From Escherichia coli (GTDB lineage: Bacteria; Pseudomonadota; Gammaproteobacteria; Enterobacterales; Enterobacteriaceae), in the NCBI RefSeq assembly GCF_003334315.1, contig NZ_QOWR01000081.1: 13,511 nt of DNA. One strand, given 5' to 3'. Position numbers and translations under genes: made by a program. Positions 1 to 13,511 of this stretch are shown one piece after another. Position 1 is the first letter of the stretch, and every line of letters begins with the position of its first letter. The notes beneath the pieces are model-generated. The model did not search any database and was not told the DNA's origin. It was given only the letters and a program-made list of their open reading frames with translations.

Positions 1-76
1 CCCCGGCTGAACCCTGAACAATGCTACCGCCATACTGCGTCATGTCGCCCTGACGCGCTGCCGGTTTTCCGCTCAT
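1..76 (-). CDS. rhsA: Rhs-family protein, 5' end only (first 25 codons; gene continues beyond the window start)
   Basis: Reverse complement of 1-76 translates from ATG (76..74) as MSGKPAARQGDMTQYGGSIVQGSAG, the conserved N-terminus of E. coli Rhs core proteins. Divergent from yibF as in K-12 rhsA (symbol from synteny recollection). Confidence 0.65.
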   Translation of the reverse strand, partial: MSGKPAARQGDMTQYGGSIVQGSAG

Positions 77-304
77 CTGCTCATCCTTGTTTTATCGGGT
101 TATTTGTCTGCTTCCAGGCAAAACCCTACAGATTTATAAGAAAGCCTTAAGTGAGATATCCATCAGATAGAAACAATTAGGAAAATATTTATATCACCAT
201 GATAAATATGTGATTTATTTGGAAGTAACAAACCATCAACATTTTCTGCCCTTTTTCCCATCACCAGGCCATACTGATATTTTTCCTCGCACAAAGGACT
301 CGGC

Positions 305-913
305 ATGAAACTCGTCGGTAGCTACACCAGCCCGTTTGTACGCAAACTTTCTATTCTGTTGTTAGAAAAGGGCATAACTTTCGAATTTATTAATGAACTG
401 CCCTATAACGCGGACAACGGCGTGGCGCAATTTAACCCGTTAGGAAAAGTGCCGGTGCTGGTGACCGAAGAGGGCGAATGTTGGTTTGATTCGCCGATCA
501 TCGCTGAATATATTGAATTAATGAATGTCGCTCCGGCGATGTTGCCGCGCGATCCGCTGGAGTCGTTGCGGGTGCGCAAAATTGAGGCACTGGCGGATGG
601 CATTATGGATGCCGGGCTGGTATCGGTGCGTGAACAGGCGCGTCCAGCGGCGCAGCAGTCTGAAGATGAATTGTTACGCCAGCGGGAGAAAATCAACCGC
701 AGTCTGGATGTGCTGGAAGGATATCTGGTCGATGGCACACTCAAAACCGATACGGTCAATCTGGCGACTATCGCCATTGCCTGTGCCGTCGGATATCTCA
801 ATTTCCGCCGCGTTGCGCCAGGCTGGTGTGTCGATCGCCCACACTTAGTCAAACTGGTCGAAAACCTGTTTAGCCGCGAAAGTTTTGCTCGCACCGAACC
901 GCCAAAGGCTTGA
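305..913 (+). CDS. yibF: Glutathione S-transferase-like protein YibF
   Basis: 202-aa ORF, AAAGGA 8 nt upstream of ATG; translation ([28 protein letters not shown]...) matches GST N-terminal thioredoxin-like fold and my recollection of YibF; position upstream of selA. Confidence 0.85.
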
Positions 914-968
914 TGCGCGATATGTCCTCCTGACCCATCTCACGTTACAATCCGTGGTTATGTTAAAC

Positions 969-990
969 GCCCTTCTCCGTGTGAGAGGGC
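969..990 (+). promoter_or_regulatory. Hairpin in selA leader (8-bp stem with single bulged T/U, 5-nt loop CGTGT); candidate SECIS-like SelB-binding element or yibF terminator
   Basis: GCCC-T-TCTC / CGTGT / GAGAGGGC read directly from sequence, 21 nt upstream of the selA ATG; function inferred. Confidence 0.3.
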
Positions 991-1010
991 CTTGATCAGC
1001 CAGGTTTCCT

Positions 1011-2402
1011 ATGACAACCGAAACGCGTTCCCTCTATAGTCAACTTCCGGCTATTGATCGCTTATTGCGCGATAGCTCCTTCCTTTCTTTGCGTGATACT
1101 TATGGTCACACCCGCGTGGTGGAATTGTTGCGTCAGATGCTCGACGAAGCGCGAGAAGTGATTCGTGGCAGCCAGACGCTGCCTGCGTGGTGTGAAAACT
1201 GGGCGCAAGAAGTCGATGCCCGGTTGACGAAAGAAGCGCAGAGCGCGCTGCGTCCGGTGATCAACCTGACGGGAACCGTGCTGCATACCAACCTTGGGCG
1301 AGCTTTACAGGCGGAAGCCGCGGTGGAAGCCGTTGCGCAGGCTATGCGTTCGCCAGTGACCCTCGAGTACGATCTGGACGACGCTGGACGCGGACATCGC
1401 GATCGTGCGCTGGCGCAGTTGCTGTGCCGCATTACGGGGGCGGAAGATGCCTGTATCGTTAATAACAATGCGGCGGCGGTGTTATTGATGTTGGCGGCCA
1501 CTGCCAGCGGGAAAGAGGTGGTGGTTTCTCGCGGCGAACTGGTGGAGATTGGCGGCGCGTTTCGTATTCCCGATGTTATGCGTCAGGCAGGCTGCACCCT
1601 ACACGAAGTAGGGACCACCAACCGCACGCACGCGAATGATTATTGTCAGGCGGTGAATGAAAATACCGCACTGTTGATGAAAGTACATACCAGTAACTAC
1701 AGCATTCAGGGGTTCACCAAAGCGATAGATGAAGCGGAACTGGTGGCGCTCGGCAAAGAGCTGGATGTTCCCGTAGTGACTGATTTAGGCAGTGGCTCGC
1801 TGGTCGATCTTAGCCAGTACGGTTTGCCGAAAGAGCCAATGCCGCAGGAGTTGATTGCGGCGGGCGTCAGTCTGGTGAGTTTCTCCGGCGACAAGTTGTT
1901 AGGCGGGCCGCAGGCAGGAATTATTGTTGGTAAAAAAGAGATGATCGCCCGCCTGCAAAGCCACCCGCTGAAGCGTGCATTACGCGCGGATAAAATGACC
2001 CTCGCGGCGCTGGAAGCCACGTTGCGTCTTTATTTACACCCTGAAGCTCTGAGTGAAAAATTACCGACCCTGCGCCTGCTTACCCGCAGCGCAGAGGTCA
2101 TTCAAATCCAGGCACAACGTTTACAGGCTCCCCTTGCCGCACATTACGGCGCGGAGTTTGCGGTACAGGTTATGCCATGTCTTTCGCAGATTGGCAGTGG
2201 TTCGCTGCCGGTTGATCGCCTGCCGAGCGCGGCATTAACGTTTACACCCCATGATGGACGCGGTAGCCACCTTGAGTCATTAGCCGCCCGCTGGCGTGAA
2301 TTGCCAGTGCCGGTGATTGGTCGTATTTATGACGGACGATTGTGGCTGGATTTACGCTGCCTTGAAGATGAGCAACGGTTTTTGGAGATGTTGTTGAAAT
2401 GA
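1011..2402 (+). CDS. selA: L-seryl-tRNA(Sec) selenium transferase (selenocysteine synthase)
   Basis: 463-aa ORF, translation [22 protein letters not shown]... matches SelA as I recall it; stop overlaps selB start (ATGA). Confidence 0.93.
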
Positions 2403-4243
2403 TTATTGCGACTGCCGGACACGTTGACCACGGCAAAACAACCTTATTGCAGGCGATTACTGGCGTAAATGCTGACCGTCTGCCGGAAGAAAAAAAGCGC
2501 GGCATGACCATCGATCTCGGCTATGCCTACTGGCCGCAGCCGGATGGTCGCGTGCCTGGTTTTATCGACGTACCCGGTCATGAAAAGTTTCTTTCCAACA
2601 TGCTGGCGGGCGTTAGTGGTATCGATCACGCGCTGTTGGTGGTGGCGTGCGATGACGGCGTGATGGCACAGACCCGTGAGCATCTGGCGATTTTGCAGCT
2701 GACCGGTAACCCGATGCTGACAGTGGCGCTGACCAAAGCCGATCGCGTGGACGAAGCGCGTGTTAATGAGGTTGAACGCCAGGTAAAGGAGGTGCTGCGG
2801 GAATACGGTTTTGCTGAGGCAAAACTGTTTATCACCGCAGCAACCGAAGGTCGGGGAATTGATGCCCTGCGCGAGCATCTGCTTCAGTTGCCGGAACGCG
2901 AGCACGCCAGCCAACATAGTTTCCGCCTCGCTATTGACCGCGCATTTACCGTAAAAGGTGCCGGGCTGGTCGTCACCGGTACGGCGTTAAGCGGGGAAGT
3001 GAAGGTAGGCGATTCACTCTGGCTGACTGGTGTAAATAAACCGATGCGTGTACGTGCGCTGCATGCGCAAAACCAGCCAACAGAAACCGCCAATGCCGGG
3101 CAGCGTATCGCGCTTAACATCGCGGGTGATGCGGAAAAAGAGCAGATTAACCGTGGCGACTGGCTGCTTGCCGATGTGCCGCCAGAGCCGTTCACACGGG
3201 TGATTGTCGAGCTTCAAACCCATACACCGCTGACCCAGTGGCAGCCGCTGCATATTCACCACGCCGCCAGCCACGTTACGGGACGCGTTTCGCTGCTGGA
3301 AGATAACCTTGCCGAGCTGGTGTTCGACACGCCGCTGTGGCTGGCGGATAACGATCGCTTAGTGCTGCGCGATATCTCGGCCCGCAACACGCTGGCGGGG
3401 GCGCGTGTGGTGATGCTTAACCCGCCGCGTCGCGGTAAACGTAAGCCGGAATATCTGCAATGGCTGGCGTCTCTTGCACGGGCGCAGAGCGATGCCGATG
3501 CGTTATCTGTTCATCTGGAACGCGGCGCGGTTAACCTTGCGGATTTCGCCTGGGCGCGCCAGCTCAACGGCGAAGGGATGCGCGAATTGCTGCAACAGCC
3601 TGGCTATATTCAGGCTGGTTATAGCTTGTTGAATGCGCCGGTTGCCGCTCGCTGGCAACGGAAAATTCTCGACACATTAGCGACTTATCATGAGCAACAT
3701 CGCGATGAACCTGGGCCTGGGCGCGAACGTCTGCGACGTATGGCGTTGCCAATGGAAGATGAAGCGCTAGTACTGTTGCTGATTGAAAAGATGCGCGAAA
3801 GCGGCGACATCCTCAGTCATCACGGTTGGCTGCATCTGCCGGATCACAAAGCGGGCTTCAGCGAAGAGCAGCAGGCCATCTGGCAAAAAGCAGAGCCGCT
3901 GTTTGGTGACGAGCCGTGGTGGGTGCGTGATCTGGCAAAAGAGACGGGTACCGACGAGCAGGCAATGCGCCTGACGCTACGCCAGGCGGCGCAGCAAGGA
4001 ATAATTACCGCGATCGTCAAAGATCGTTATTACCGTAACGATCGGATTGTCGAATTTGCCAATATGATCCGCGATCTCGATCAGGAGTGTGGTTCAACCT
4101 GCGCGGCGGATTTCCGCGATCGCTTAGGCGTAGGCCGAAAGCTGGCAATTCAGATTCTGGAATATTTTGACCGCATTGGCTTTACGCGTCGTCGTGGAAA
4201 TGATCATTTATTGCGCGACGCATTATTATTTCCGGAAAAATAA
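2399..4243 (+). CDS. selB: Selenocysteine-specific translation elongation factor SelB
   Basis: 614-aa ORF with GTP-binding P-loop [11 protein letters not shown] at N-terminus, DxxG (DVPGHE) and NKxD-like (TKAD) motifs; C-terminal winged-helix extension; ends ...LLFPEK as in E. coli SelB. Confidence 0.93.
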
Positions 4244-4296
4244 GGAAATGATTAATTAATTTTTAAAATAAATTAATACAAATTTCTTATGATTTT

Positions 4297-4338
4297 AAAA
4301 AAAGCACATTGTTTAATGAATACAATGTGCTTTTTATT
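4297..4338 (+). terminator. Rho-independent terminator of selAB (A-run upstream, T-run downstream, potentially bidirectional)
   Basis: AAAAAAA-GCACATTG-(loop TTTAATGAATA)-CAATGTGC-TTTTTATT; perfect 8-bp stem at 4304-4311 / 4323-4330 followed by T-run 4331-4338. Confidence 0.6.
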
Positions 4339-4432
4339 AGATTAATTTTGATAATCAATAATAATGATCATGTTTTCGAATGAAAATCCTCAGTAAGCTG
4401 CCCACCCTTTTTTACACTTTCAGGAGTGTGTT

Positions 4433-5584
4433 ATGGCATCTTCAACTTTCTTTATTCCTTCTGTGAATGTCATCGGCGCTGATTCATTGACTGATGCAAT
4501 GAATATGATGGCAGATTATGGATTTACCCGTACCTTAATTGTCACTGACAGTATGTTAACGAAATTAGGTATGGCGGGCGATGTGCAAAAAGCACTGGAA
4601 GAACGCAATATTTTTAGCGTTATTTATGATGGCACCCAACCTAACCCCACCACGGAAAACGTCGCCGCAGGTTTGAAATTACTTAAAGAGAATAATTGCG
4701 ATAGCGTGATCTCCTTAGGCGGTGGTTCTCCACACGACTGCGCAAAAGGTATTGCGCTGGTGGCAGCCAATGGCGGCGATATTCGCGATTACGAAGGCGT
4801 TGACCGCTCTGCAAAACCGCAGCTGCCGATGATCGCCATCAATACCACGGCGGGTACGGCCTCTGAAATGACCCGTTTCTGCATCATCACTGACGAAGCG
4901 CGTCATATCAAAATGGCGATTGTTGATAAACATGTCACTCCGCTGCTTTCTGTCAATGACTCCTCTCTGATGATTGGTATGCCGAAGTCACTGACCGCCG
5001 CAACGGGTATGGATGCCTTAACGCACGCTATCGAAGCATATGTTTCTATTGCCGCCACGCCGATCACTGACGCTTGTGCACTGAAAGCCGTGACCATGAT
5101 TGCCGAAAACCTGCCGTTAGCCGTTGAAGATGGCAGTAATGCGAAAGCGCGTGAAGCAATGGCTTATGCCCAGTTCCTTGCCGGTATGGCGTTCAATAAT
5201 GCTTCTCTGGGTTATGTTCATGCGATGGCGCACCAGCTGGGCGGTTTCTACAACCTGCCACACGGTGTATGTAACGCCGTTCTGCTGCCGCATGTTCAGG
5301 TATTCAACAGCAAAGTCGCCGCTGCACGTCTGCGTGACTGTGCCGCTGCAATGGGCGTGAACGTGACAGGTAAAAACGACGCGGAAGGTGCTGAAGCCTG
5401 CATTAACGCCATCCGTGAACTGGCGAAGAAAGTGGATATCCCGGCAGGCCTACGCGACCTGAACGTGAAAGAAGAAGATTTCGCGGTTCTGGCGACTAAT
5501 GCCCTGAAAGATGCCTGTGGCTTTACTAACCCGATCCAGGCAACTCACGAAGAAATTGTGGCGATTTATCGCGCAGCGATGTAA
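4433..5584 (+). CDS. yiaY: Iron-containing (group III) alcohol dehydrogenase
   Basis: 383-aa ORF, AGGAG 7 nt upstream of ATG; translation has Fe-ADH signatures ([14 protein letters not shown]-binding glycine motif, histidine-rich metal site ...[16 protein letters not shown]...). Position between selB and aldB as in K-12. Confidence 0.9.
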
Positions 5585-5599
5585 TCATCATTTCCACAA

Positions 5600-5627
5600 C
5601 GGCTGGCAAATTGTCAGCCGCTTTTTC
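5600..5627 (+). terminator. Rho-independent terminator after yiaY
   Basis: CGGCTGGCAAATTGTCAGCCG hairpin (5600-5620) immediately followed by CTTTTTC. Confidence 0.55.
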
Positions 5628-5684
5628 AACTATCTCTGTAACCCTTGCCCGTAAATTCGTGATAGCTGTCGTAAAGCTGTTACC

Positions 5685-5707
5685 GACTGGCGAAGATTTC
5701 GCCAGTC
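5685..5707 (+). promoter_or_regulatory. Perfect 10-bp inverted repeat with 3-bp spacer (GACTGGCGAA-GAT-TTCGCCAGTC) in the aldB leader; candidate operator or 5'-UTR hairpin
   Basis: Read directly: 5685-5694 is the exact reverse complement of 5698-5707; lies 42 bp upstream of the aldB ATG; no T-run follows, so not a terminator. Confidence 0.3.
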
Positions 5708-5748
5708 ACGTCTACCCTTGTTATACCTCACACCGCAAGGAGACGATC

Positions 5749-7287
5749 ATGACCAATAATCCCCCTTCAGCACAGATTAAGCCCGGCGAGTATGGTTTCC
5801 CCCTCAAGTTAAAAGCCCGCTATGACAACTTTATTGGCGGCGAATGGGTAGCCCCTGCCGACGGCGAGTATTACCAGAATCTGACGCCGGTGACCGGGCA
5901 GCTGCTGTGCGAAGTGGCGTCTTCGGGCAAACGAGACATCGATCTGGCGCTGGATGCTGCGCACAAAGTGAAAGATAAATGGGCGCACACCTCGGTGCAG
6001 GATCGCGCGGCGATTCTGTTTAAGATTGCCGATCGAATGGAACAAAACCTTGAGCTGTTAGCGACGGCTGAAACCTGGGATAACGGCAAACCCATTCGCG
6101 AAACCAGTGCTGCCGACGTGCCGCTGGCGATTGACCATTTTCGCTATTTCGCCTCGTGTATTCGGGCGCAGGAAGGTGGGATCAGTGAAGTTGATAGCGA
6201 AACCGTGGCCTATCATTTCCATGAACCGTTAGGCGTGGTGGGGCAGATTATCCCGTGGAACTTCCCGCTGCTGATGGCGAGCTGGAAAATGGCTCCCGCG
6301 CTGGCGGCGGGCAACTGTGTGGTGCTGAAACCCGCACGTCTTACCCCGCTTTCTGTACTGCTGCTAATGGAAATTGTCGGTGATTTACTGCCGCCGGGCG
6401 TGGTGAACGTGGTCAATGGCGCAGGTGGGGTAATTGGCGAATATCTGGCGACCTCGAAACGCATCGCCAAAGTGGCGTTTACCGGCTCAACGGAAGTGGG
6501 CCAACAAATTATGCAATACGCAACGCAAAACATTATTCCGGTGACGCTGGAGTTGGGCGGTAAGTCGCCAAATATCTTCTTTGCTGATGTGATGGATGAA
6601 GAAGATGCCTTTTTCGATAAAGCGCTGGAAGGCTTTGCACTGTTTGCCTTTAACCAGGGCGAAGTTTGCACCTGTCCGAGTCGTGCTTTAGTGCAGGAAT
6701 CTATCTACGAACGCTTTATGGAACGCGCCATCCGCCGTGTCGAAAGCATTCGTAGCGGTAACCCGCTCGACAGCGTGACGCAAATGGGCGCGCAGGTTTC
6801 TCACGGGCAACTGGAAACCATCCTCAACTACATTGATATCGGTAAAAAAGAGGGCGCTGACGTGCTCACAGGCGGGCGGCGCAAGCTGCTGGAAGGTGAA
6901 CTGAAAGACGGCTACTACCTCGAACCGACGATTCTGTTTGGTCAGAACAATATGCGGGTGTTCCAGGAGGAGATTTTTGGCCCGGTGCTGGCGGTGACCA
7001 CCTTCAAAACGATGGAAGAAGCGCTGGAGCTGGCGAACGATACGCAATATGGCCTGGGCGCGGGCGTCTGGAGCCGCAACGGTAATCTGGCCTATAAGAT
7101 GGGGCGCGGCATACAGGCTGGGCGCGTGTGGACCAACTGTTATCACGCTTACCCGGCACATGCGGCGTTTGGTGGCTACAAACAATCAGGTATCGGTCGC
7201 GAAACCCACAAGATGATGCTGGAGCATTACCAGCAAACCAAGTGCCTGCTGGTGAGCTACTCGGATAAACCGTTGGGGCTGTTCTGA
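5749..7287 (+). CDS. aldB: Aldehyde dehydrogenase B (NAD(P)-dependent)
   Basis: 512-aa reading from ATG 5749 preceded by AAGGAGA (5736-5742); translation [17 protein letters not shown]... with ALDH catalytic signatures (ELGGKSP glutamate motif, catalytic Cys in GEVCTCPSR). The track ORF start at 5611 is an unsupported upstream extension that overlaps the yiaY terminator. Confidence 0.92.
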
Positions 7288-7318
7288 TATAAGAAGCTGG
7301 TCGCATTGGGTATTCATT

Positions 7319-7400
7319 GCCTGATGCGACGCTTACGCGTCTTATCATGCCTACGGGAACCTGACCGTAGGCCGGATAAGGCGTACACGCCGCATCCGGC
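7319..7400 (+). repeat. REP/BIME element (two REP palindromic units in opposite orientation) downstream of aldB
   Basis: GCCTGATGCGACGCTTACGCGTCTTATCATGCCTAC (7319-7354) and GTAGGCCGGATAAGGCGTACACGCCGCATCCGGC (7367-7400) match the enterobacterial REP consensus families as I recall them. Confidence 0.75.
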
Positions 7401-7505
7401 ATAAACAAAGCGCACGTTGTTACAATTTACGTTTTAAACCTACGTGCGCAATAACCCAGACTACGCCAACAGAAGTGCGTTTCTGGGGCGTGTTTTGTCA
7501 GGAGT

Positions 7506-7646
7506 TTAATCTCGCGTTTCGATGGTGAGCGGGCGAACCAGGCCGTAAATCACCATTGGTGATCCGAGGCCAATCAGCAATAAACGGTAGATAATTGAAG
7601 GTTTAATACGCTTAATCTGTACTGTGGATGTTTTACTGGAGTTATT
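7506..7646 (-). CDS. Hypothetical small protein (47 aa from ATG 7646..7644; 70 aa if started at 7718), one predicted transmembrane helix
   Basis: Only ORF in the AT-rich aldB-yiaW spacer; translation MNNSSKTSTVQIKRIKPSIIYRLLLIGLGSPMVIYGLVRPLTIETRD has a basic stretch followed by a about 20-aa hydrophobic segment; no clear Shine-Dalgarno; unverified. Confidence 0.15.
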   Translation of the reverse strand, partial: NNSSKTSTVQIKRIKPSIIYRLLLIGLGSPMVIYGLVRPLTIETRD

Positions 7647-7765
7647 CATTAGTTTGGCCAATAGTTCCACTATTTCAATATGATAAACCTCGTCCTGTTG
7701 AAAAACCAGACAGCACATTTAAGAAAGTATATAAAAAACAATATGTCGTTATATAAATAAGGAAA

Positions 7766-7794
7766 TTGCACTGCATCATGGCATTTCATAATAT
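7766..7794 (+). promoter_or_regulatory. Candidate sigma70 promoter for yiaWV (-35 TTGCAC, 17-bp spacer, -10 TAATAT)
   Basis: Hexamers read by eye at 7766-7771 and 7789-7794 in an AT-rich region about 40 bp upstream of the yiaW ATG; no experimental support. Confidence 0.2.
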
Positions 7795-7831
7795 GCGTTA
7801 ATTGTTCTTTTTTATATTCTTTGAGGGAAAT

Positions 7832-8155
7832 ATGTTCCTGGACTATTTTGCACTGGGAGTGCTTATTTTTGTATTTCTGGTGATCTTCTATGGGATCATT
7901 ATTTTACATGATATTCCCTACCTGATTGCCAAAAAACGTAATCATCCTCATGCCGACGCCATTCATGTTGCTGGTTGGGTGAGTCTTTTTACGTTACATG
8001 TTATCTGGCCGTTTTTGTGGATTTGGGCCACGCTTTACCGCCCGGAGCGGGGATGGGGAATGCAAAGCCATGATTCATCCGTTATGCAACTGCAACAGCG
8101 CATTGCCGGGCTGGAGAAACAGCTCGCCGACATCAAATCCTCTTCTGCCGAGTAA
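7832..8155 (+). CDS. yiaW: Small inner-membrane protein YiaW (DUF3302 family, AaeX-like partner of a membrane fusion protein)
   Basis: 107-aa reading from ATG 7832 preceded by GAGGGA; two hydrophobic helices ([40 protein letters not shown]) then a coiled C-terminal tail; the track start at 7802 lacks an RBS. Confidence 0.85.
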
Positions 8156-8160
8156 TACTT

Positions 8161-9306
8161 ATGGATTTACTGATTATTTTGACCTATGTGGCTTTTGCAT
8201 GGGCAATGTTTAAGATCTTCAAAATTCCCGTAAATAAATGGACCATTCCCACAGCGGCCCTGGGTGGAATATTTATTGTCAGCGGTCTAATTCTGTTAAT
8301 GAACTATAACCATCCGTATACCTTTAAAGCGCAAAAAGCGGTTATTTCTATTCCTGTTGTCCCACAGGTGACTGGTGTGGTGATTGAAGTGACGGATAAG
8401 AAAAATACGCTGATTAAAAAAGGTGAGGTGCTATTTCGACTGGACCCGACGCGTTATCAGGCGCGGGTGGATCGGCTGATGGCGGATATCGTTACCGCAG
8501 AACATAAACAGCGGGCGTTGGGCGCAGAGTTAGATGAGATGGCGGCGAATACTCAGCAGGCAAAGGCCACGCGGGATAAATTCGCTAAAGAGTATCAGCG
8601 TTACGCACGTGGCAGCCAGGCGAAAGTAAACCCGTTTTCAGAACGCGATATCGATGTGGCGCGGCAAAATTATCTGGCGCAGGAAGCCTCCGTGAAGTCA
8701 TCGGCGGCGGAACAAAAACAGATCCAGAGCCAGCTGGATAGCCTGGTGTTGGGTGAACATTCTCAAATCGCCAGCCTGAAAGCACAGCTCGCGGAAGCAA
8801 AATATAACCTTGAGCAGACGATAGTGCGTGCGCCGAGCGATGGTTATGTGACCCAGGTACTGATTCGTCCGGGTACCTATGCCGCGTCGCTGCCGCTACG
8901 TCCGGTGATGGTGTTTATACCCGATCAGAAACGACAAATCGTGGCGCAGTTCCGTCAGAACTCCTTGCTGCGACTGGCTCCTGGCGACGATGCGGAAGTG
9001 GTGTTTAATGCTCTGCCAGGTAAGGTATTCAGCGGTAAGCTGGCAGCCATTAGTCCAGCCGTTCCCGGCGGAGCTTATCAGTCGACCGGCACCTTACAGA
9101 CGTTAAACACAGCGCCGGGTTCAGATGGCGTTATCGCGACCATTGAACTGGATGAGCACACTGATTTGAGCGCTTTACCAGACGGTATTTACGCCCAGGT
9201 GGCGGTTTACTCTGATCATTTCAGCCATGTCTCGGTGATGCGCAAAGTGCTATTACGCATGACCAGCTGGGTGCATTACCCACACCTGCGGCAACCGTGG
9301 CGATAG
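8161..9306 (+). CDS. yiaV: HlyD-family membrane fusion protein YiaV; last about 9 codons are junction-derived, not native
   Basis: 381-aa ORF starting 5 nt after the yiaW stop; N-terminal TM helix, biotinyl/lipoyl-like beta-barrel and long coiled-coil segments typical of membrane fusion proteins; from about 9280 the same nucleotides encode the WcaK N-terminal motif in another frame. Confidence 0.85.
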
Positions 9307-9361
9307 CGCCATTCTGCGCGGGCTTTTAGATGCCATCAACACGCTCTCGCCTGAGGCTGAA

Positions 9362-10537
9362 GTGGATGTGATGAGCCGTTATCCGGTGAGTTCTTCCTGG
9401 TTGCTCAATCGCCCGGTGATGGGCGATCCGCTCTATTTGCAGATGAAAGCGCATAACAATGCGCCGGGCATGGTCGGGCGAGTGAAGAAAGTATTGCGTC
9501 GTCGCTATCAGCATCAGGTGCTGCTGTCACGCGTCACGGACAGCGGCAAGCTGCGCAATATCGCCATTGCTCAGGGCTTTACCGATTTTGTGCGTCTGTT
9601 GTCCGATTATGACGCGATTATCCAGGTGGGCGGATCGTTCTTCGTCGACCTGTATGGTGTGACGCAGTTTGAGCACGCGCTGTGCACCTTTATGGCGAAA
9701 AAACCGATTTATATGGTCGGCCATAGTGTCGGGCCGTTCCAGGCACCGGCGTTTAACCATATGGCAAACTATGTCTTTGGTCACTGCGACGCGCTGTTCC
9801 TGCGCGAGTCGGTCAGCCTTGATTTGATGAAACGCAGCGACATTGACACCTCGAAAGTGGAGAAGGGTGTCGATACCGCCTGGTTGGTCGATCACCACGA
9901 TGACAGTTTTGACGCGAGCTACGCCGTCCAGCACTGGCTGAATGTGGCGCAGCAGCAGAAAACCGTGGCGATTACCCTGCGTGAACTGGCGCCGTTTGAT
10001 AAACGCCTGGGCACCACGCAGGAAGCCTACGAAAAAGCGTTTGCGGGCGTGGTAAATCGGATCATCGCCAGCGGCTGGCAGGTGATGGCGCTCTCTACCT
10101 GTACGGGCATCGACAGCTATAACAAAGACGATCGCATGGTGGCGCTTAACCTGCGTAAACATATTCAGGACCCATCGCGCTACCACGTGGTGATGGATGA
10201 GCTTAACGATCTCGAAATGGGCAAACTGCTGGGCGCCTGTGACCTGACGGTCGGTACGCGTCTGCATTCAGCAATTATCTCCATGAACTTCGGAACACCG
10301 GCGATTGCGATTAACTACGAACACAAATCAGCGGGCATTATGCAGCAACTGGGTATGCCGGAAATGGCAGTCGATATTCGCCATCTACTGAATGGCGACC
10401 TGGAAGCGATGGCGGCAGACACCTTGGGTCAACTCTCAACGCTTGTGCCGCGCCTCAATGACGCGGTAGCGCGTGAGCGCGCGGCGGGGCTGGCGATGGT
10501 GGAATCGGTATTAACGCGCATCGGGGAGGGGAAATGA
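9362..10537 (+). CDS. wcaK: Colanic acid biosynthesis pyruvyl transferase WcaK, 5'-truncated (homology begins at 9281 with no start codon; first in-frame starts are GTG 9362 and ATG 9371)
   Basis: Frame-2 translation from 9281 reads [20 protein letters not shown]..., the conserved N-terminal motif of polysaccharide pyruvyl transferases (PF04230-type); the frame is closed by TGA at 9260-9262; stop overlaps the wcaL start (ATGA). Confidence 0.8.
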   Translation: MDVMSRYPVSSSWLLNRPVMGDPLYLQMKAHNNAPGMVGRVKKVLRRRYQHQVLLSRVTDSGKLRNIAIAQGFTDFVRLLSDYDAIIQVGGSFFVDLYGVTQFEHALCTFMAKKPIYMVGHSVGPFQAPAFNHMANYVFGHCDALFLRESVSLDLMKRSDIDTSKVEKGVDTAWLVDHHDDSFDASYAVQHWLNVAQQQKTVAITLRELAPFDKRLGTTQEAYEKAFAGVVNRIIASGWQVMALSTCTGIDSYNKDDRMVALNLRKHIQDPSRYHVVMDELNDLEMGKLLGACDLTVGTRLHSAIISMNFGTPAIAINYEHKSAGIMQQLGMPEMAVDIRHLLNGDLEAMAADTLGQLSTLVPRLNDAVARERAAGLAMVESVLTRIGEGK

Positions 10538-11760
10538 AGGTTGGTTTCTTCTTGCTGAAATTCCCGCTGTCGTCTGAAACCTTTGTGCTCAACCAGATTG
10601 TGGCCTTTATCGAAATGGGCCACGAGGTCGAAATTATCGCCCTGCAAAAGGGCGATATGACCAACACCCACGCGGCGTTCACGCAATATGACCTGGCAGC
10701 GAAAACACGCTGGTTACAGGATGAACCAGTGAGTACGGGCGCAAAGTTTCGTCATCGCGCAGTCAGCACGTTGCGCGGGTTACATCGCCCGGCAACGTGG
10801 CAGGCGCTCAATATGAAGCGTTACGGCCATGAAGCGCGCAACCTGATCCTCTCGGCCATTTGCGGCAATAACGCCCAGCCATTTAGCGCCGACGTATTTA
10901 TTGCTCACTTCGGCCCGGCGGGGGTAACTGCGGCGAAACTGCGCGAACTGGGCGTGATCCGCGGCAAAATCGCGACCGTCTTTCACGGCATTGATATCTC
11001 CAGCCGCGATGTGCTGAGCCACTACACGCCGGAGTATCAACAGCTTTTCCGTCGTGGCGATCTGATGCTGCCGATCAGTAATTTGTGGGCGAAACGATTG
11101 CAGGGAATGGGCTGCCCGGCGGCGAAAATTGCCGTTTCGCGAATGGGCGTCAACATGGACCGTTTTGCCCTGCGCCCCACCAAAGCGCCGGGTGAGACGC
11201 TGCAAATAATCTCAGTGGCCCGCCTGACGGAGAAAAAAGGTCTGCATGTAGCGATTGAAGCCTGCCGTCAGTTGAAAGAGCGCGGTGTGGCGTTTCACTA
11301 TCGCATTCTCGGCATCGGCCCGTGGGAACGCCGCCTGCGCACATTGATCGAACAGTATCAACTGGAAGGGTACGTGGAGATGCCGGGCTTTAAGCCCAGC
11401 CATGAGGTAAAAGCGATGCTCGATGAGGCGGATGTCTTTCTGCTGCCGTCGATTACCGGCGCAGATGGCGATATGGAAGGCATTCCTGTGGCACTGATGG
11501 AAGCGATGGCAGTGGGCATTCCGGTGCTTTCGACCGAGCATAGCGGTATTCCGGAACTGATAGACGCCAACGCCTCCGGCTGGCTGGTGGCGGAGAACGA
11601 CGCTCCGGCGCTGGCGGGCAAACTCAGCGAACTGCGCCATCTTGATGAGCCGACGCTGCGCCCGGTGCTACAACGCGCCCGCCAAAAAGTTGAAACCGAG
11701 TTCAATCAGCAGGTGATTAACCGCCAGCTCGCGAGCCTGCTGCAAACCCTTTGCTATTGA
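10534..11760 (+). CDS. wcaL: Colanic acid biosynthesis glycosyltransferase WcaL (GT4 family)
   Basis: 408-aa ORF; N-terminus MKVGFFLLKFPLSSETFVLNQ... and C-terminal GT-B motif region (EGIPVALMEAMAVGIPVLSTEHSGIPELI) with the E-X7-E signature typical of GT4 enzymes. Confidence 0.88.
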   Translation: MKVGFFLLKFPLSSETFVLNQIVAFIEMGHEVEIIALQKGDMTNTHAAFTQYDLAAKTRWLQDEPVSTGAKFRHRAVSTLRGLHRPATWQALNMKRYGHEARNLILSAICGNNAQPFSADVFIAHFGPAGVTAAKLRELGVIRGKIATVFHGIDISSRDVLSHYTPEYQQLFRRGDLMLPISNLWAKRLQGMGCPAAKIAVSRMGVNMDRFALRPTKAPGETLQIISVARLTEKKGLHVAIEACRQLKERGVAFHYRILGIGPWERRLRTLIEQYQLEGYVEMPGFKPSHEVKAMLDEADVFLLPSITGADGDMEGIPVALMEAMAVGIPVLSTEHSGIPELIDANASGWLVAENDAPALAGKLSELRHLDEPTLRPVLQRARQKVETEFNQQVINRQLASLLQTLCY

Positions 11761-11766
11761 GGTTGC

Positions 11767-13158
11767 ATGGATAAAAAATTTTCCCGACGTCGCTTCCTGT
11801 CGGCAGGCGCTACGCTTGCCGCCATCCCACTGCTACACAGCCCCGCTGTACGCGCGCTGGGGCGTAATGATGCCGTTGATATCCGCAACTATCTGGTCGG
11901 TAATGACTGGATCCGTGCATTTCGTCAGGCGTTTGACGATGCCGATATTATCGACGTCCCCAAAGGCGTGATTTGCGACAATATTAATACCGGCATCATC
12001 ATGCCACCGGGTAAAACGCTGCAGGTAAACGGCAGCCTGAAAGGCAATGGTCGTGGGCGTTTTGCGTTGCAGGATGGGTGTAAAGTGGTGGGGGAGGGGA
12101 GTCTCAATAATATTACTCTCGACGTGCGCGGATCTGACTGCACCATCGAAGGTCTGGCGATGAGCGGCTTTGGCCCGGTGGCGCAAATCTACATCGGCGG
12201 CAAACAAAAAAGGACGATGCGCAATCTCACCATCACGCGGATTAATATCAGCCAGGCTAACTACGGTATTTTACGCCAGGGTTTCCATAATCAACTCGAC
12301 GGCGTAAAAATCACCCACAGTAAATTTAGCTACCTGCAGGGTGATGCCATTGAATGGAACGTCGCGATTAACGACAAGAATATCCTCATTTCTGACCATG
12401 TGATTGACCACATTGATTGCACCAATGGCAAGACCAACTGGGGCATCGGTATTGGGCTTGCGGGCAGCACCTACGATAACGACTACCCGGAGCACCAGGC
12501 GGTGAAAAACTTTGTCGTCGCCAATATCACCGGCAGCCACTGCCGACAGTTGGTTCACGTCGAAAACGGTAAACACTTTATTATCCGTAATATTAAGGCA
12601 CGAAATATCACCCCGGAATACAGTAAGAAAGCCGGAATTGATAACGCTACGGTAGCAATATATGGATGTGATAATTTCGTTATCGATGGTGTGGATATGG
12701 TTAATAGCGCGGGCATGCTAATTGGCTATGGTGTTATCAAAGGGAAATATCTGTCGATACCGCAGAATTTCAGGATAAATAATGTGCGGATGGATAATCG
12801 ACAATTAACGCTAAAGCTGCGGGGAATACAGATTTCATCGGGCAATGCACCTTCGTTTGTTGCGCTTACCAACCTCGATCTGAACCATGCGTCGCTGGAG
12901 ATCCACAACAAGCCGCAACACATATTTATGCGTAATATCAAGGTGATACAGCCTGCGGCGCGCGGGCCCGCACTACAGCTCCACTTCGACTTACGCAAGG
13001 ATGTTCGCGGGAAGTTTATGGCCAAACAGGAGACGCTGCTCTCGATGTCAAATATTCATGCGGTCAATGAAAACGGCCAGCGGTCTGTGGATATTGACCG
13101 TATTGATCAGCACGTTGTCAATGTCGATGCGCTGAATTTTACCCTGCCTAAACGCTGA
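11767..13158 (+). CDS. wcaM: Colanic acid biosynthesis protein WcaM (Tat-signal, predicted right-handed beta-helix)
   Basis: 463-aa ORF, GAGG 9 nt upstream of ATG; twin-arginine signal [18 protein letters not shown]...A-VRA-LG; repeated N-I-T / V-x-N motifs consistent with a parallel beta-helix; last gene after wcaL as in the colanic acid cluster. Confidence 0.85.
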
Positions 13159-13360
13159 ATTTTTAGCCGAACCCACCTCTTCAGACGCATTCTCGGATTG
13201 TATCCAGAGATTTAGCGGTATTTACCCGATACTATGAGAAAACATAGTGGATCAAACAACGTTAATAGCTATAATTCATCAACCGTATATAGGTGGACAC
13301 GATAATGGGTGATGATGCCAACTTACTGATTTAGTGTATGATGGTGTTTTTGAGGTGCTC

Positions 13361-13420
13361 CAGTGGCTTCTGTTTCTATCAGCTGTCCCTCCTGTTCAGC
13401 TACTGACGGGGTGGTGCGTA
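13361..13420 (+). promoter_or_regulatory. JUMPstart-like sequence with degenerate ops-like core, downstream of wcaM (upstream of the next polysaccharide locus)
   Basis: Begins CAGTGGCT (13361-13368) and ends GGGGTGGTGCGT (13408-13419), resembling JUMPstart ends (CAGTGGCTCTGG...GGGGCGGTAGCGT) as recalled, but the 8-bp ops GGCGGTAG is not intact. Confidence 0.2.
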
Positions 13421-13511
13421 ACGGCAAAAGCACCGCCGGACATCAGCGCTATCTCTGCTCTCACTGCCGTAAAACATGGCAACTGCAGTTCACTTACACC
13501 GCTTCTCAACC

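Follow-up and report, generated by a model that had tools for sequence, protein, structure and literature searches.

The stop codon of selA and the start codon of selB share the tetranucleotide ATGA, read at positions 2399-2402 of the E. coli DNA stretch analyzed here (13,511 nucleotides in full, called the window below). The preliminary description of this stretch had claimed such sharing, and it was confirmed by the ends and starts of the open reading frames (ORFs) as well as by a 4-nt overlap in the RefSeq annotation. That the overlap structure and the assignment of the two genes to selA and selB are correct is close to certain. By analogy with gene pairs that have been tested, selB is likely to be translated by termination-reinitiation at this junction, and on balance we would also expect most selB translation to depend on the translation of selA. 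The feature itself is ordinary; its presence in E. coli and its conservation are both already catalogued.

Anatomy of the junction and the start of selB

The following features of the window define the junction.

1011..2402, + strand: selA coding sequence (L-seryl-tRNA(Sec) selenium transferase, 463 aa) from the ORF list, with its stop TGA at 2400-2402
2369..2371, + strand: TGA stop in the selB reading frame, from the translation of 2339-2470, which excludes starts upstream of 2399
2384..2387, + strand: GGAG Shine-Dalgarno (SD)-like motif inside the Leu-Glu codons of selA (ttG GAG), 11 nt before the selB ATG
2399..2402, + strand: ATGA stop/start overlap, in which the selB ATG (2399-2401) shares bases with the selA TGA (2400-2402)
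2399..4243, + strand: selB coding sequence (selenocysteine-specific elongation factor, 614 aa) from the ORF list, with its start ATG at 2399-2401
2417..2440, + strand: codons of the SelB P-loop GHVDHGKT (residues 7-14) from the translation, which exclude starts downstream of 2399

SelA ends in ...RFLEMLLK before its stop. In the selB frame, the translation of 2339-2470 contained no ATG, GTG or TTG between the stop at 2369-2371 and position 2399, and the first later in-frame candidate was a TTG at codon 17, past the P-loop. Because of the upstream in-frame stop and the position of the P-loop, ATG2399 is the sole start that gives a functional GTPase, and any alternative selB start was ruled out on the same two grounds. 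The TIGR00475 profile of NCBIfam aligned from SelB residue 1 at profile position 1. Chain z of PDB entry 5LZB has 614 residues and aligns 1-614 to 1-614 with SelB of the window, and the 614-residue E. coli SelB chain is also present in the cryo-EM entries 5LZC and 5LZD. The cryo-EM chains show that the field uses the ATG2399 start, which is distinct from an in vivo mapping of the N terminus.

The identity of both genes was borne out by NCBIfam equivalog matches and by the RefSeq annotation, in agreement with the preliminary description. SelA matched TIGR00474 with 630 bits (cutoff, 267.9) over residues 10-460, and SelB matched TIGR00475 with 916 bits (cutoff, 242) over residues 1-607. The PLP lysine K295 of SelA and its surrounding motif were invariant in an alignment of 45 SelA sequences. 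One E. coli record of 623 aa (P0004) is named SelA and also has the C-terminal winged-helix Pfam domains of SelB; it is probably a selA-selB fusion that arose from an internal deletion or an assembly error.

Many E. coli chromosomes matched the region 900-4400 with 100% identity; the region was present in 5426/5426 complete E. coli genomes, and the 101 nt around the junction were found with at least 95% identity in 5426/5426 of them. In an E. coli genome of 100% identity, RefSeq annotates yibF, selA, selB and yiaY and gives selA and selB a 4-nt overlap; the ATGA, the GGAG and the 4-nt RefSeq overlap were all kept in three more divergent E. coli genomes. The locus is the same as the selAB operon of E. 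coli K-12 (b3591, selA; b3590, selB), whose gene order yibF-selA-selB-yiaY-aldB and distances of 97, -4, 189 and 164 nt are those of the window (K-12 table, PMC10666635 supplement). The junction does not differ from that of K-12 in any way, and only the strain background is different.

From 1011 to 4243, no terminator-like site was listed on the + strand by a consensus scan. The same scan gave one weak promoter-like site inside selA (2033-2061, 9/12 matches), which is within chance expectation, and an internal selB promoter was rejected since this site was its sole candidate. The two genes are reportedly cotranscribed, the promoter lying ahead of selA.

The + strand of the window contains 74 copies of ATGA, compared to about 50 expected from base composition, and the tetranucleotide by itself is uninformative. 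What goes beyond chance is that it lies where two long, family-matched ORFs meet and that it is retained in orthologues.

The surroundings of the operon were inspected as well. The window was colinear with 0/5426 complete E. coli genomes, and the best single place covered 70% of it. Positions 1-9280 represent the rhs/yibF-selAB-yiaY-aldB-yiaW-yiaV region. From 9280 (9280-13158), a 5'-truncated wcaK (profile from position 36) is followed by wcaL and wcaM of the colanic acid cluster, and in complete E. coli genomes wcaK-wcaL-wcaM sit elsewhere. The break at 9280 falls just before the normal yiaV stop, with no IS sequence apparent in the surrounding bases, and this junction either arose by rearrangement in the source strain or is an assembly chimera. 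The end of the window (approximately 13306-13511) lies inside IS1: an inverted-repeat-like end, ggtgatgatgccaacttactgatttagtg, precedes the start of the transposase, of which 49 codons from GTG13363 match the IS1 zinc-binding domain and IS1 transposase models. The thousands of matches that the window gave on plasmids are probably due to this IS1 end. In some E. coli strains, unlike in the window (7250-8200), IS1 has inserted between aldB and yiaV, and part of 7250-8200 is present more than once per genome, at a median of 3 sites. A second ATGA overlap was present at 10534-10537 between wcaK and wcaL, with a strong SD-like sequence, GGGGAGGGG, 3 nt upstream; this pair shows how common the arrangement is.

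Conservation of the overlap among orthologous loci

The SelA alignment was built from representatives of clusters at 50% identity; a plain homologue listing gave only close Enterobacteriaceae. Using this 45-sequence alignment, 80 selA loci were taken from species-representative genomes, mostly of gamma-, beta- and alphaproteobacteria, plus one Flavobacteriales bin and two Poribacteria bins. The selB start of each orthologue was defined by the P-loop glycine, which had to follow it by 6 residues, and such a start codon was available in 66/66 selB orthologues. In nine high-GC loci, where the open frame runs far upstream, the junction was anchored on a tblastn alignment. The loci were distributed as follows.

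selB downstream on the same strand: 66/80 loci
No selB inside the fetched flank: 14/80 loci
NTGA 4-nt overlap: 47/66 loci (34 ATGA, 11 GTGA, 2 TTGA)
7-nt overlap (ATGCTGA): 1 locus
Intervening ORF of about 250-290 aa from selA to selB: 6 loci
Spacer of 10-81 nt: 9 loci (Photorhabdus among them)
Spacer of 167 or 238 nt: 2 loci
Spacer of 1.7 kb: 1 locus

Inspection of orthologous operons, which had been proposed as a check, thus upheld the arrangement, the NTGA overlap being present in 47 of the 66 loci with selB downstream of selA. The overlap was found at SelB identities down to 36% and was conserved across gamma-, beta- and alphaproteobacteria. When any preceding gene was considered, the selB start lay within the stop codon of that gene in 53/66 loci. 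About 25% of conserved co-directional gene pairs overlap at all (PMC10666635). Compared to this baseline, the 47/66 overlaps correspond to a binomial p of about 1e-14, which is only indicative, the loci being related; a hand count by genus (30/47 overlaps) gave a p of about 4e-8, to be read with the same reserve.

Published surveys place the junction within a large class. Among co-directional genes, a distance of -4 is the most frequent one, for E. coli and for 1,695 species alike (PMC10666635), which bears out the earlier remark that the arrangement is common, and 707/2,987 co-directional E. coli pairs lie between -8 and +6 nt (PMC10666635). The E. coli selA-selB pair is itself listed with a distance of -4 and the label 'CMPLX not' (PMC10666635 supplement). 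For COG1921 (SelA)@COG3276 (SelB), the median is -4, the first quartile is -4 and the third quartile is 1.9 (n = 254 gene pairs; PMC10666635 supplement).

Some loci depart from the overlap with selA. In Photorhabdus (L012 and L014; selA stop at 4390-4392), selA ends in TAA, followed by an AT-rich spacer of 51-54 nt without an SD-like motif and then by selB. In Photorhabdus the overlap has thus been lost, and therefore it is dispensable within Enterobacterales. In six alphaproteobacterial loci (Mesorhizobium and others), the inserted ORF ends in an ATGA shared with selB; in one of them (L028), the product of this ORF (4331-5176) is a Sel1-repeat protein that also matches MerG, MotX and ExoR repeats weakly.

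The origin of the overlap was then considered from the side of the SelB protein. Codon 2 of SelB is ATT or ATC in 64/66 loci, and of the 19 loci in which selB does not overlap selA at -4, 17 retain Ile2 (6 of those 17 overlap the intervening ORF). Because Ile2 is kept without the selA overlap, the TGA belongs to the conserved Met-Ile start of SelB (ATG ATY). It exists for protein reasons, and selection as a stop is therefore not required; the overlap requires no additional sequence. Moreover, the SelA tail is variable beyond its last conserved residues, D447 and R449, in the 45-sequence alignment, and this fits a model in which selA would read on until a built-in stop is supplied by the ATG ATY of SelB.

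The conserved ATY codon, including its presence in loci without a -4 overlap, and the variable SelA tail are also in favor of a rival explanation. The overlap could be a neutral by-product of the Met-Ile start of SelB, with free 30S subunits starting selB de novo at the GGAG that precedes it, independently of selA translation. The nine species with spacers of 10-81 nt point in the same direction. We nevertheless consider this explanation unlikely, and three features of the orthologous loci speak against it. In 47/59 pairs without an intervening gene (80%), selA stops at the TGA of the selB start, whereas a random frame predicts at most about one third. In addition, 13 of the overlapping loci have the weak starts GTG or TTG, and the gene inserted in alphaproteobacteria re-creates an ATGA overlap with selB.

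Proposed translational coupling and its alternatives

Coupled translation is a reasonable, if putative, interpretation of the junction, based on the behavior of the class of tested pairs and on the conservation of the overlap. In the proposed mechanism, RF2 would release SelA at the UGA while the ribosome remains on the mRNA. Pairing of the GGAG with 16S rRNA would help to retain the ribosome after SelA release, and the retained ribosome would move back by one base and reinitiate at AUG2399 with fMet-tRNA. SelB output would then be a fixed fraction of SelA output.

Several ATGA-overlap pairs are coupled by termination-reinitiation, namely, trpB-trpA as well as hyfH-hyfI, menD-menH and ydbH-ynbE (Huber et al. 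2019, 2023). The selA-selB pair resembles such pairs in being co-directional, in its 4-nt NTGA overlap, in the SD-like motif located in the upstream gene and in the conservation of the overlap. It differs from pairs of the trpB-trpA type in that SelA and SelB form no heteromeric complex. Overlaps are enriched among pairs encoding heteromeric complexes (30.4% versus 6.8%; PMC10666635), and since SelA and SelB do not belong to a common complex, the stoichiometry argument for coupling is weaker here. Among overlapping pairs that were tested, 13/14 were strictly coupled (PMC6728339). Coupling collapsed with a spacer of about 20-38 nt, and a 38-nt spacer reduced reinitiation by 80-100% in three E. 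coli pairs (PMC10666635). The literature searched (papers other than the original selAB reports) yielded no translational-coupling experiment on selAB. No selA or selB entry was present in the supplement text of Mori 2021 or Burkhardt 2017 with regard to synthesis rates or copy numbers.

We then examined the putative ribosome-binding site of selB. The predicted duplex of the GGAG with the anti-SD sequence has an energy of -6.4 kcal/mol, which places it among the best 7.7% of windows in selA. Its spacing of 11 nt is within the range of about 5-15 nt upstream of a downstream start, on the long side. TGGAGA is kept in 11/12 aligned Enterobacterales while adjacent codons vary, and Yersinia has AGGGAG at this place. 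Across the 12 enterobacterial junctions, TGATTATT was invariant, and the first base of the overlap was A or G. Over the wider set of overlapping loci, an SD-like motif upstream of selB reached the best 10% of windows in just 40%.

The conservation of the GGAG in Enterobacterales is a further point in favor of independent initiation of selB, as is RNA folding. The region 2340-2460 folds at -22.2 kcal/mol compared to a shuffle mean of -26.2 kcal/mol (z +1.19; 183/200 shuffles fold at least as well), and in the predicted centroid the GGAG is partly unpaired and the AUG is unpaired. With such an unstructured start region and a GGAG of its own, de novo initiation at selB would be physically possible. 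However, tested overlapping E. coli pairs that have SD motifs are still strictly coupled, and this adds to the evidence from orthologous loci against independent initiation.

The same folding data bear on a second rival, in which the selB ribosome-binding site would be held in a helix that is opened only by ribosomes translating selA, as in atpHA and the IF3-L35-L20 operon. Next to reinitiation, such structure unmasking is the textbook way of coupling two genes (PMC10666635). In atpHA, rplJL-rpoBC and infC-rpmI-rplT, the downstream cistron depends on upstream translation, as proposed for selB; these systems need no stop/start overlap, whereas selAB has no predicted masking structure. Indeed, folding of 2340-2460, which covers pairings over up to 120 nt, revealed no helix masking the SD motif and start codon of selB, this region folding worse than its shuffles and leaving the AUG unpaired. 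Unmasking is thus very improbable at this junction.

Least probable of all, to the point of being negligible, is recoding of the selA UGA by the selenocysteine machinery or by a near-cognate tRNA, which would extend SelA by 21 residues and modulate selB initiation: the stop is indeed a UGA within the operon for the UGA-decoding machinery, and the extended selA frame is open for 21 more codons, but no SECIS-like hairpin was found in 2400-2460 after the UGA (z -0.63; 56/200 shuffles fold at least as well), where local pairing is limited to a 5-bp stem closing a 13-nt loop, an Rfam scan of the whole window gave no match at the gathering score, and the UGA is forced by the ATG ATY of selB and is present in every overlapping orthologue, whatever the downstream sequence.

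Stop/start overlaps have been described elsewhere in selenocysteine gene clusters. In alphaproteobacteria, selC is nested in selB, and the selB stop overlaps the next ORF (PMC8124441). These overlaps were read as a means of adjusting, by reinitiation, the relative amounts of the machinery's components (PMC8124441). They resemble the selA-selB junction as stop/start overlaps within selenocysteine clusters. However, they concern the 3' end of selB and a tRNA gene, whereas the overlap of the window concerns the 5' end of selB and selA.

A leader hairpin and possible consequences of coupling

Coupling by termination-reinitiation would connect selB to events at the start of selA. One further feature is located there.

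955..1002, + strand: predicted hairpin in the selA leader (-17 kcal/mol; z -1.16, not significant alone), just before the selA ribosome-binding site

No Rfam family covered 955-1002 at the gathering score. According to a passage of a preprint citing Thanbichler and Bock 2002, the 5' untranslated region of selAB contains a SECIS-like element 3 nt from the selA SD sequence. The same passage states that SelB, together with GTP and Sec-tRNA, binds this leader element and represses selAB expression. The hairpin at 955-1002 is probably this published SECIS-like SelB-binding element, the match being one of description.

As a further step, repression of selA by SelB at the leader element would lower selB translation too. 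The ATGA overlap would then close a negative feedback, in which SelB bound to the leader hairpin lowers selA initiation and hence its own synthesis; we regard this loop as possible but rather doubtful. A selB that depends on the translation of the preceding gene would fit the near-universal overlap of its start with that gene (selA in 47/66 loci, an inserted ORF in 6).

For a specialist, the overlap will be unsurprising, and it has little significance beyond correct annotation. In this respect, it fixes the selB start; in Photobacterium profundum, the annotation missed the selB start because that start overlaps the selA stop (PMC1780047). In selenoprotein engineering or after selA deletion, polar effects on selB should be expected unless the last 15-100 nt of selA are retained. 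The overlap also predicts that SelA and SelB are made at a fixed ratio. If coupling is real, SelB autoregulation at the leader hairpin would reach selB itself, and the feedback, if true, would hold the ratio of SelB to Sec-tRNA steady.
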